A stretch of DNA of 64,000 bases from Escherichia coli (GTDB lineage Bacteria > Pseudomonadota > Gammaproteobacteria > Enterobacterales > Enterobacteriaceae), in the NCBI RefSeq assembly GCF_050320075.1, contig NZ_CP190018.1; one strand, 5' to 3'. The position numbers are program-made. Below, piece after piece: positions 57,001 through 60,000 of the stretch (the first letter of the stretch is position 1; each line of letters opens with the position of its first letter).

Positions 57001-60000
57001 CCTTCACAGGCCGGTGATATAGCCAGAGTACTTGGGGCTGCCAGACGTGTTGATGGTGCGATTGAAGGTAAGGACTTTGTTGTGACCTGGGCCTTTGGTC
57101 ACTTGCTGGAGCAGGCGCCACCGGAGGCGTATGGTGAGCAGTTTGGCAGTCCCTGGAAAATTGACGTTTTGCCGGTCTTTCCTGAACAGTGGCAGATGGT
57201 GGTGAAGGATAATGTCGGGAAGCAGTTTAATGTGATCAGCCGCCTTCTCCGTAAGGCTGATGAAGTGGTGATTGCCACTGACGCCGATCGTGAAGGCGAA
57301 ATTATCGCAAGGGAACTGCTGGATTATTGTGGTTATACCGGCGTTGTGCGCCGTCTCTGGCTGTCCGCACTGGATGAGAGCAGTATCAGGGAGGCGCTGG
57401 GCAGGATACTGCCCGGAGAGGAGACCGAGAAGTTATATGAAGCCGGTAAGGGACGCAGCCGGGCTGACTGGCTGACGGGGATCAACCTGACGCGTCTGTA
57501 TACCCTGAAAGCCAGGGAGTGTGGTGTGTCCGGCGTCCTCTCTGTTGGCAGGGTGCAGACGCCCACGCTTGCGATGGTGGTCAGACGGGATGCAGAAATC
57601 AAAAATTTTATTCCGGTACCTTACTGGCAACTGTATCTCTGGCTGGAGAAGGACAATGTGCGTTTTCGTACCTCCTGGATTGCGGCAGCGCAGTACTGCG
57701 ATACTGAAAAACGGTGTGTGAATGTGCAGGCGGCAACAGCCGTCCTGTCACAGTGTCGTCAGGCCGGTGTTGCTGTTGTCAGGGATGTCAGCAGCAGACG
57801 GGAGAAAAAGCAGCCTCCGCTGTGTTTTTCGCTCGGAACGCTGCAGGAGGTCTGTTCGCGCAAATTTGGCCTCGGCGCGCAGGCCGTTCTTGATATAGCC
57901 CAGTCGCTGTACGAAAAGCATAAGGCGACAACATATCCGCGTACAGATTGCGGTTATCTGCCTGTGTCGATGTACAAAGAAGTGCCTGACGTACTGGCAG
58001 CGCTGGAAAAAACCGATCCGGATATTGCCCCGGAGCTGGCAAAACTCAGTCCTGATATTGTGTCGGGGATCTGGAACGACAGGAAGATCACCGCGCATCA
58101 TGCGATAATCCCCACCCGTCAGCCGTTTAATATTGGGGCGCTGAGTGATAATGAGCTTAAGGTGTACCGGTTAATTCGTCAGCATTATCTGGCTCAGTTT
58201 TTACCCGTTCAGGAGCTGGATGTCACAGAGGCCACTTTTCTTGTTGCGGGGCAGTTGTTTGGAACGCGGGGGCGAGTGGAGGTTGTCAGGGGATGGCGTG
58301 CGCTTTTTGTGTCAGATTCGGCGGGAGAGGAAGAGGATGTTGCAGACGATGAGCAGGCGATGCCCCTTCCCGTACTGGCAAAAGGCGATGAATGTCGTCC
58401 TGCTGAAGCTGAACTCAAAGAGATGCAGACCACGCCACCGCGTCATTATACGGAAGGCACGCTGATTGCGGCGATGAAAAACGCTGCGGGGATGGTGAGT
58501 GATCCGGCACTGAAAAAAGTGTTACGCGAAAATGCGGGGCTGGGCACTGAAGCGACCCGCGCAGAAATACTGGAAACGTTGTTCACCCGCAAATATATCG
58601 AGAAGCAGGGTAAGCATATCCGTGCCACGCAACTGGGGGCGGAGCTGATAGCGGGATTGCCGGAGGCGCTGACCAGTCCGGGGACAACGGCGCTGTGGGA
58701 ACAGGCTCTGGATGATATTGCACAGGGTAAACTGTCACTGTCGTCATTTATGGAAAAGCAGAAACAGTGGCTTAACCACCTGGTGGCCGGTGCAAGGCAG
58801 CAGCAACTGCAGATCACGGCACCGGTTACGCCGGCATGCCCTCTTTGTGGGAGCAGAATGCGGAAAGTGAAGATGAAAAGCGGGAAAGGGGAATTCTGGA
58901 GCTGCCAGCGTTATCCGGAGTGTAAGGGAGTGATTTCAGAGCAGAAACCGACATCCGGGAAACGGGGCGGCAGAAAAATTAAAAAGCATGGATGATGATT
59001 ACATGCTTTTTTTTATTTGTTAAAGTACATACGCTTTGATGTATACCCCCGTTATCAGCGGGAAACAGAGTGGCGATTAAACAACGGCGTTGCTCTGTTT
59101 CTGATACAGCAACGACCACTGCGTCCGGTTGTGTTGCAAGGCGCACGAACTCCGTGAAAACCGCGTCGGGAGTGATCCCCGGAGAAAAGTGAGATAACCT
59201 CAGGGCTGGTAACCCGTGACGGCGCTGAATTTTCAGCGCCGTTTTTTATTGGTGTTTTCTGCTTGACTTTATTTATGGCTGTTTTAAAAATGAGCATGCT
59301 AAATAGCTGCTTTGCAGCCAACCAATCTCCCGGTGGTCTGAGAGGGAGGCTTACGCGACCACACTGTCATCTTCGGATGACCAGCCAATGTTCCAGCAGT
59401 CTGAGAGGAGCGCCTTCGGGTGACTGCCAGCCAATGTTTCAGCGATCTGAGAGAAACGCCTTCGGGTGATTGCAATATCCTCGTAGCCTGAAAGGGGATG
59501 CCTTTATGGCGGTACATCCGTTTAGCCTCTGGGAACGGATATCACCACTGGTGATTGAGGTACGTTTAACTGCACAGACAGCCGGAAATTCAGCTGATTC
59601 CGGCATCCCCGACGGGAACTATCACTCCCGTCAGGGCTGGTGATGTTCTCCGTCATATCTTTTTTTACTCCATGGAGAAATCATCATGTCTGCAACTAAC
59701 TCTACTTCTGCAAAAACTGAATACTTCAACCTGACCATGAAAGGTCTTGGGTATCTCAGCAATGTTCGTCAGGTTAACCATCAGAACGGTTCGTTCCTCA
59801 GCTGCGTGATTAACGCACTGAGTGGACCAACGGACAATCCGTCCTATACGCGTTTTGATGTCACGGTTGCCGGTAAAGAGGCGACCACCCTGATCTCCCG
59901 CTGCCAGAAAGCAGTGGATGAGGACCGCAAGGTACTGCTTGGTTTTACGTTAAGCAACCTTGCCACCGACATTTTCACCCTGAACAAGGGGGAGCATGCC

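Follow-up and report, generated by a model that had tools for sequence, protein, structure and literature searches.

A STAXI pseudoknot array at the 5′ end of the predicted leader of a DUF3577-ssb operon in an integrative conjugative element of Escherichia coli

STAXI repeats between topB and the DUF3577 gene

The stretch of Escherichia coli DNA analyzed here (contig NZ_CP190018.1 of assembly GCF_050320075.1; 64 kb, hereafter the window) is 100% identical to the chromosome of E. coli ECCNB12-2, and the region considered lies in an integrative conjugative element (ICE) of the Salmonella pathogenicity island 7 (SPI-7) type. In the RefSeq annotation topB (56977-58995) is followed on the same (+) strand by a gene for an 'STY4534 family ICE replication protein', which matches Pfam DUF3577 (59686-60150), and by ssb (60466-61023); the non-coding region downstream of topB extends as a whole to 59685. 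Within this region lies a series of direct repeats, described in a preliminary account as three tandem 46-bp copies that might serve the downstream genes as operator sites or as the target of a small RNA, and these are almost certainly an instance of the STAXI RNA motif (RF01728). In cmscan searches of 58500-60500 (E ≤ 10) and of the whole window, the + strand at 59365-59518 matches the STAXI model in full (positions 1-153 of 153), with a score of 139.2 bits (E = 1.5e-31; the gathering score is 40.5 bits), and this is one of only two Rfam matches in the 64 kb. A possible 'DUF3577' RNA motif was not returned from 58500-60500 at E ≤ 10 and no claim is made for it.

STAXI, an abbreviation of Ssbp, Topoisomerase, Antirestriction, XerDC Integrase (PMC2864571), was described in 2010 as a pseudoknot repeated two, usually three times, in Enterobacterales beside such genes (Weinberg et al., 2010; PMC2864571), and its authors left undecided whether it acts as RNA or as single-stranded DNA (PMC2864571). 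The window copy has the tandem pseudoknot units, the UUCG loops, the annotated pseudoknot, the topoisomerase and Ssb neighbours and the host order of the family; topB lies upstream and DUF3577 and ssb downstream, within an SPI-7-type ICE. It differs in having five units rather than the 'two, usually three' described, and nothing essential differs. The identification is a rediscovery and as such matters little, since the repeats are a textbook instance of a curated, functionally orphan family in its canonical location between topB and ssb. What is worth keeping is that STAXI stands here at the very 5′ end of a transcript with a conserved sigma-70 promoter, joined to the ribosome-binding-site-occluding leader of an operon for two proteins of the single-strand-binding (SSB) type. 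With this assembled context, a motif listed as 'RNA or DNA, function unknown' becomes the subject of a hypothesis, post-transcriptional control, that can be tested directly.

The repetition noted in the preliminary description is real, but it does not consist of three clean tandem copies; the array comprises five pseudoknot units and two small hairpins. Tandem Repeats Finder reports only 2.0 tandem copies (59381-59473; period 46, 87% match, score 144), and a repeat search places a reference copy and two others, 61% and 87% identical to it, at 59318, 59381, and 59427, so that neighbouring copies are 63 and 46 nt apart. The 61% belongs to the first copy (59318-59363), which is separated from the second by a 17-nt hairpin. 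An end at 59470, as originally given, cuts the array, which reaches 59561; two diverged units at its 3′ end, as well as the RNA pseudoknot nature of all the units, had been overlooked.

Structure and RNA character of the array

Each unit follows the plan 5′-a-N-b-UGAGA-a′-(short hairpin)-b′-3′, in which a pairs with a′ and b with b′, so that the internal loop of a hairpin pairs with sequence just upstream to form the pseudoknot. The array, all of it on the + strand, begins with a small 5′ hairpin, hp0 (GCUGC UUU GCAGC; 59306-59318, read from the sequence), whose equivalent on a 3.1-kb E. coli plasmid, L003, is built from a different sequence (GUCGC UUCG GCGAC). Unit U0 (59318-59362) follows, with a at 59327-59331, a′ at 59344-59348, b at 59333-59338, and b′ at 59357-59362; it lies outside the Rfam match and was detected both by a unit covariance model that we built, R1 (34.5 bits, E = 1.2e-6), and by a pseudoknot scanner. 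The second hairpin, hp1 (GUCAUC UUCG GAUGAC; 59365-59381), is the first element of the Rfam STAXI model. The canonical unit U1 (59381-59427) has a at 59390-59394, a′ at 59407-59411, b at 59396-59401, b′ at 59422-59427, and an inner hairpin GCC-UUCG-GGU, and it scores 72.5 bits with R1. The second canonical unit, U2 (59427-59473), is recovered by the repeat searches, the Rfam alignment, and covariation; its a/a′ helix reads UUUC/GAAA where that of U1 reads UUCC/GGAG, and its b/b′ helix CGAUC/GAUUG where that of U1 reads CAGUC/GACUG. A C(UUCG)G tetraloop is present in U1, U2, and hp1.

The two units that follow were examined in an alignment of the distal leader (A4, 31 sequences). U3 (59477-59515) is diverged, with a (AUCCUC, 59477-59482) paired to a′ (GGGGAU, 59494-59499) and b (GUAGCC) to b′ (GGUAC); it corresponds to the third unit of the Rfam alignment and its a/a′ helix shows compensatory changes in 5/5 pairs. 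U4 (59516-59561) was found by the pseudoknot scan and is the most widely conserved unit, the 'unit3' of the original STAXI authors' alignment. It pairs a (AUCCGUU, 59516-59522) with a′ (AACGGAU, 59534-59540) and b (GCCUC, 59525-59529) with b′ (GAGGU, 59557-59561) around an inner hairpin at 59541-59555. In A4 its helix 3 is 97% paired, its pseudoknot helix 4 is 96.8% paired with three compensated pairs, and its helix 5 is 99.5% paired. The Rfam match therefore spans hp1, U1, U2, and U3, leaving one hairpin and unit (59306-59362) on its 5′ side and the large last unit (59516-59561) on its 3′ side. The pseudoknot scanner detects a mean of 1.4 units in each real leader; for shuffled leaders the mean is 0.05 and for the reverse complement 0.04, so that the units are not a product of chance.

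Covariation was assessed in 44 distinct canonical units taken from related ICE loci and plasmids, the pseudoknot helix not having been used in choosing them. The outer helix is 96.2% paired, with compensatory changes at 6/6 pairs, and the pseudoknot helix is 96.4% paired, with compensatory changes at 5/5 pairs; when the partner columns are slid as a control, pairing falls to 33-53%. The pseudoknot pairs are identical to SS_cons_1 of the original STAXI alignment. Among the paired cells, G·U combinations outnumber A·C combinations by 75 to 8 (G·U making up 12% of all paired cells), from which it follows that the structure belongs to the sense strand. One pair position is G·U in 38/44 units, the inner loop is UUCG in 33/44, and all 84 matches to the unit model (84/84) fall on the DUF3577 strand. 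The unpaired nucleotides A7, A8, U22, G23, and A26 are invariant in the 44 units, the most conserved feature being the loop CTG, with C21 in at least 90% of units and T22 and G23 in 100%.

A block of L003 is 100% identical to 59318-59566, which is exactly the array, and the array thus behaves as one module. Its composition varies among loci: U3 and U4 are present in all aligned Enterobacterales DUF3577 leaders, and the number of canonical units ranges from none, in some Xenorhabdus, to three, in the window copy. Some elements carry several STAXI arrays, two of which are ~1.1 kb apart in a Xenorhabdus innexi locus (L068 2045-2234 and 3169-3358), and four are present in SPI-7 of S. Typhi according to the authors' alignment. 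Many Xenorhabdus genomes hold several DUF3577 loci.

The predicted leader, its operon and the possible role of the array

Immediately upstream of the array is a sigma-70 promoter, TTGACT-17 nt-AAAAAT (59263..59291, +), identified by a promoter scan, with a predicted start near 59297. The sequence TTGAC[A/G]-N17-AAAAAT/AAGAAT is found at the equivalent position in related loci, where the boxes are conserved and the spacer varies. Promoter-like boxes also precede STAXI on small plasmids, and the module always lies 10-25 nt downstream of such an element. A terminator scan detects no terminator between the array and the DUF3577 gene (59562-59685), and the resulting leader is ~390 nt long, with the array and its hairpins (59306-59561) as its 5′ end. 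STAXI-like sequence was detected with nhmmer upstream of DUF3577 on the same strand in 65/73 Enterobacterales loci, and 55 loci show the full series of promoter, leader array, anti-Shine-Dalgarno (anti-SD) sequence, Shine-Dalgarno (SD) sequence, and ATG. The earlier suggestion that the repeats serve the downstream 'replication/ssb module' is therefore right in a general sense, in that they form the 5′ leader of that operon. Transcripts have been detected for other copies of the family: strand-specific RNA-seq of Pectobacterium atrosepticum detected three STAXI copies, one of which was called a 5′ untranslated region (UTR) and two of which were up-regulated in starvation, and reverse transcription quantitative PCR found STAXI RNA in vesicles of Shiga-toxin-producing E. 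coli (STEC).

Between the array and the start codon, A4 contains two further hairpins, H5 (59581-59604) and the strongly conserved H6 (CCCCGACGGGA..UCCCGUCAGGG; 59607-59636). Pairing in this alignment is 83% for helix 6 and 90% for helix 7, and some of the changes in the two helices are compensatory. Minimum free energy and centroid folds then place the SD in a hairpin (59639..59685) formed by the anti-SD GGUGAUGUUCUCC (59639-59651) and GGAGAAAUCAUC (59674-59685), with a U-rich loop between the arms and the ATG at 59686; all three hairpins are on the + strand. An H6-like hairpin and an anti-SD/SD hairpin are also found in Thioalkalivibrio, which is without STAXI, so that control at the ribosome-binding site appears to be older than the array, the array being an Enterobacterales-specific addition. 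A 45-amino-acid coding sequence placed by PGAP at 59506-59643 (WP_155522399.1) starts at an ATG in the U3 loop that is not conserved in A4 and is probably spurious.

The operon downstream of this leader (59686..61058, +) consists of the DUF3577 gene (59686-60150), an open reading frame of 67 amino acids (60250-60453), and ssb (60466-61023). It is bounded by terminators, the next good one in the terminator scan being a hairpin and T-run at 61034-61048, after ssb. DUF3577 is the only Pfam match of the first gene product, which has no sequence relatives in the PDB. A confident structure model built from a 35-sequence alignment (pLDDT 88.7) finds as its top 50 PDB matches nucleic-acid-binding proteins of the oligonucleotide/oligosaccharide-binding (OB) fold, nearly all of them bacterial, mitochondrial or apicoplast SSBs (E ~1e-4; TM 0.5-0.6 on the target), and DUF3577 is accordingly predicted to have an SSB-like OB fold. 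The C-terminal tails of family members are acidic and disordered, and in many cases their last residue is F, as in the tip of SSB. On the basis of these model matches and tails the operon is predicted to encode an SSB-like protein, a 67-amino-acid protein, and a canonical Ssb; no statement of an SSB-like fold for DUF3577 was found in the searchable literature. In ICEclc the homologous operon, orf95213-inrR-ssb, is under tight control by a bistable promoter and is a central, necessary part of the programme of transfer competence (PMC3395598, PMC9286271).

Tentatively, and with a confidence that falls a little short of even, STAXI is read here as a transcribed, cis-acting 5′ leader RNA. The pseudoknot array would then be a recognition platform in cis for a protein that exerts post-transcriptional control on the operon. 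The bound protein would most plausibly be an OB-fold single-strand-binding protein, either the operon's own or that of the host, and the more specific proposal of SSB-type autoregulation through the leader is rather improbable. According to this proposal, free protein would bind the leader and the ribosome-binding site would be kept closed, and translation would rise where the protein is absent, as in a newly entered element, or where it is titrated by single-stranded DNA during excision, rolling-circle replication or transfer. A protein-bound operator is favoured because unpaired nucleotides are invariant across distant genera, because U3 and U4 travel with the leader, and because single-strand-binding proteins are known to regulate their own mRNAs via leader structures. 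The single-strand-binding protein of phage T4, the product of gene 32, controls its own mRNA in this way. The likeness to the gene 32 operator is one of logic only: both have 5′ pseudoknots in the leader of a gene for an OB-fold single-strand-binding protein and a U-rich region at the ribosome-binding site, but here there are five pseudoknots rather than one, an anti-SD strand holds the site, and there is no sequence relationship. If autoregulation of this kind were true, SSB-like protein would be made in a burst on entry into a naive cell or on the appearance of single-stranded DNA, and its synthesis would then be shut off. This would parallel, at the level of RNA, the 'zygotic induction' of genes in plasmid leading regions, and a motif without an assigned role since 2010 would acquire one.

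Several observations weigh against a leader RNA of this kind. STAXI is found without a downstream DUF3577 gene or ssb on plasmids of 3-7 kb and on the O157 island, and its function therefore cannot depend on this operon alone. The number of units varies from ~2 to 5 across loci, which a less specific role would also explain. The gene 32 operator needs an unstructured A/U-rich tract that reaches from its pseudoknot as far as the ribosome-binding site, whereas here the intervening 120 nt are folded (H5, H6, and the anti-SD hairpin) and only the hairpin loop is U-rich. The core pairs of the anti-SD/SD hairpin are 90-100% kept and are almost invariant, so that covariation neither supports nor refutes them, and no conserved pairing that links the array to this hairpin was found. 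Single-sequence folding energy is uninformative on the strand (z = -2.6 and z = -2.8 for the two strands), and no functional test of STAXI and no protein partner were found in the searchable literature. Long-range pairings within the non-coding region, namely a 10-nt complementarity between 59377-59386 and 59635-59644 that is specific to the window, and pairing between the structured segment upstream of the promoter (segment A, see below) and U2, are without conservation in other loci and are treated as chance.

The small STAXI plasmids come from E. coli, Pantoea, and Rahnella, and include one with a rolling-circle Rep_1 initiator (L003), on which the simple consensus of a pC194-type nick site has no match, and several that are ColE1-like. 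A frequent partner of STAXI on these plasmids is EFASI (RF02957), located 150-500 nt downstream on the same strand, and EFASI likewise follows STAXI on the same strand on the O157 island. At the Rfam threshold EFASI is absent from the 64-kb window, where the DUF3577 leader and gene take its place. STAXI and EFASI are separated by a long, conserved hairpin, CGTCACTTG...CAAGTGACG, on small plasmids, on the O157 island, and, in the alignment of the STAXI authors, in Yersinia enterocolitica; it is at 2630-2680 (-) in L003 and ~6390-6440 in L002, and is also present in L006 and L005. In L003 and L006 the STAXI sense strand has a 24-nt perfect match to the origin of transfer (oriT) region of ColE1 (ColE1 1521-1498, minus strand), ~150 nt upstream of STAXI in the former and at 1910-1933 in the latter. 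The match is on the strand with the nic sequence CTGGCTTA (CTGG/CTTA), 30-50 nt 5′ of nic, taking nic at its ColE1 position, the sequence of which was confirmed. STAXI would then belong to the transferred strand, close to the leading end, and would be among the first DNA that a recipient receives. An oriT may thus be present on these small plasmids even though they have no relaxase gene, its leading region containing STAXI and EFASI.

The main rival to a cis-acting regulatory leader is a portable 5′ stabilizer or insulator, which is unlikely but deserves the most weight among the alternatives. A row of pseudoknots would block RNase E from 5′-end-dependent entry or scanning, and it might in addition keep Rho from loading on a long untranslated leader. 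The RNA behind the array, which is the DUF3577-ssb mRNA in the window and EFASI on plasmids, would become more abundant. An mRNA lives longer when its 5′ end is structured or when RNase E meets obstacles as it scans, and a stabilizer would account for the constant position just downstream of a promoter-like element, for the presence of 59318-59566 as an identical block in L003, for the unrelated sequences that follow the array, and for the freely varying number of units. It explains modularity and the plasmid copies better than a regulatory leader does, and sequence conservation and gene association less well: the invariance of A7, A8, U22, G23, and A26 exceeds what an obstacle needs, though tertiary contacts could explain it, and the reported association of the family with ssb, topoisomerase, and antirestriction genes is left unexplained.

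Somewhat less probable is a trans-acting role, as a small RNA or as a protein sponge that titrates a factor of the host or the element. Sponge RNAs such as CsrB typically contain several copies of a binding unit, Rfam types STAXI as 'Gene; sRNA', and STAXI is carried by a plasmid that encodes nothing but Rep (L003). RNA of a relic copy carried by O157-type STEC genomes can still be detected, with high abundance in vesicles, and the copies of starved Pectobacterium are up-regulated. In the window, however, no terminator follows the array, so that a free RNA would need processing, and the position relative to DUF3577, fixed in 65/73 loci, together with the presence of U3 and U4 in every aligned Enterobacterales leader, points to a role in cis.

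The possibility raised by the STAXI authors (PMC2864571), that the motif acts as single-stranded DNA, is about as improbable, or slightly more so. In this case the units would stay folded on the strand that is transferred or displaced, and could for example offer an SSB-free structured site at which primase, which prefers CTG, or another enzyme begins to synthesize the complementary strand, in the manner of the G4-type single-strand initiation signals of plasmids. The family does occur in elements with a single-stranded stage, beside ssb, topB, and antirestriction genes; the loop CTG is invariant, and in L003 and L006 the sense strand matches the nicked strand of the ColE1 oriT. The G4-type ssi and Frpo signals of leading regions, found beside ssb, psiB, and ardA, are similar in being structured non-coding DNA by ssb in a conjugative element, but they act as DNA hairpins, whereas STAXI has RNA-type signatures behind an ordinary duplex promoter. 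UUCG loops, in 33/44 units, are especially stable in RNA and not in DNA; G·U, conserved at one position in 38/44 units and amounting to 12% of paired cells, would be unlikely in a DNA helix under selection; a conserved duplex promoter lies directly upstream and RNA is detected. Moreover, the oriT match is short (24 nt), and vegetative replication of L003 and of the ColE1-like plasmids, given the direction in which they replicate, would be expected to displace the strand opposite to the STAXI sense strand.

Processive antitermination of the put type is weakened as an explanation by the shortness of the operon and by its own terminator at 61034-61048. It is very improbable that STAXI and DUF3577 form a pair like a type III toxin-antitoxin system, in which an RNA neutralizes a protein as ToxI neutralizes ToxN. 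The layout is alike, as in the ToxIN architecture: a promoter, tandem pseudoknot repeats of 36-47 nt, a structured spacer, and a gene of ~150-170 codons, and the antitoxin RNAs ToxI, CptI, and TenpI similarly consist of tandem direct pseudoknot repeats with a promoter just upstream of a small protein gene. Here, however, the units are diverged (61-87% identical) rather than near-identical, the terminator between repeats and gene is missing (59562-59685), and the partner is of another fold and often absent, DUF3577 being predicted to be SSB-like rather than ToxN-type, with DUF3577 as its only Pfam match and no match in PADLOC, and STAXI occurring without any partner gene. Least credible of all is that the repeats work as duplex DNA, as operators or iterons to which a regulator or a replication protein would bind. 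In favour of this reading are direct repeats beside genes annotated as 'replication' proteins, but it is rejected, and the small-RNA target of the preliminary description is not supported, since the differences between repeats are compensatory, keep two interlocking helices, and are strand-specific, the repeats lie downstream of a conserved promoter and not over it, and UUCG tetraloops, a conserved G·U pair, and the match to a curated RNA motif all speak for RNA.

Segment A and other features of the window

The upstream part of the non-coding region contains a second candidate RNA. The putative topB terminator, a hairpin over the topB stop codon followed by a T-run (58981..59015, +), was read from the sequence; its 10-bp stem (58981-58990/59002-59011) encloses an 11-nt loop and is consequently unlisted by the terminator scan, for which the loop limit was 8 nt. 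The second hairpin and T-tract that had been noted downstream is borne out by the scan as an 11-bp stem with seven G-C pairs (59218-59243), followed by TTTTTATT. The sequence that ends in this intrinsic terminator (59218-59248), segment A (59051..59248, +), is a candidate multi-branched structured RNA on the evidence of its fold, its conservation, and its terminator. A candidate weak promoter, TTGTTA-17 nt-TGTATA preceded by TGA (59019..59047, +), precedes it; this was not called by the simple promoter scan, and it sits in a block, YTGCTAA..GCTTTGATGCA, that is conserved in alignment A5 and resembles a weak extended -10 promoter.

Segment A is conserved in 13 loci of nine genera and is matched by no Rfam family. 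It is enclosed by a long-range helix (59051-59059/59205-59213) that shows compensatory changes, and contains a conserved core, ACUCCGUGAAAACCGCGUCGGGA..UCCCCGGAG. In the consensus structure 89% of cells are paired, against 41-51% when the columns are slid, and 13 pairs are changed on both sides, which is moderate evidence as the structure was derived from the same alignment. The fold has an energy of -78.5 kcal/mol (z = -3.39 relative to shuffles). The segment is optional: most Xenorhabdus loci have no more than 15 nt between the end of topB and the -35 box.

The P. atrosepticum RNA-seq study lists a small-RNA candidate, reg_seq34b (601860-602087), that ends 72 nt before the STAXI annotation (602159-602313), and this gap equals the terminator-STAXI spacing of a related Pectobacterium locus and of the window. 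The discrete transcript of ~200 nt that had been proposed to end at 59218-59248 thereby gains indirect support, from this candidate, from the conservation in 13 loci, and from the supported fold. Segment A is probably a separate conserved structured RNA, either a small RNA, which is plausible because the Pectobacterium counterpart was detected by RNA-seq, or an element of the topB 3′-UTR, as it could be in loci without the topB terminator. It is a candidate for a new ICE-encoded small-RNA family, and its terminator insulates the STAXI promoter from upstream transcription.

Further observations concern the surroundings of the locus, for which no phage relatives were detected by blastn against phage genomes. 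Directly upstream of topB is a gene (56235-56960) that matches Pfam AcaB and TIGR03761 (ICE_PFL4669). AcaB is a transcriptional activator of IncC plasmid conjugation, and the gene is, judged by these matches, a possible regulator of the transfer genes of the island. Between it and a gene for an STY4528-family 'replication protein' lie 25.6 tandem copies of a 36-bp unit (55211-56130; CGGTGTTGCCAGTGGCAACAGTGGTTAAAAAATGTG, 91% match), each of which holds the palindrome TGTTGCCA-GT-GGCAACA. PGAP places a hypothetical protein in this array, where long open reading frames are open on both strands because 36 nt is equal to 12 codons; in appearance the array is closer to iterons or to a centromere-like array than to a gene. 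Downstream of the operon, 61725-62515 contains a direct duplication with a spacing of ~382-430 bp, in which 257 nt are 95% and 153 nt are 85% identical. A strong terminator hairpin occurs twice in it with the same sequence (62105-62128 and 62487-62510), and promoter-like sites are duplicated as well. At the other end of the window, 9092-9313 (-) encodes the core E. coli small RNA C0719 (RF00117, 298 bits), and the left border of the island is therefore inside the window.

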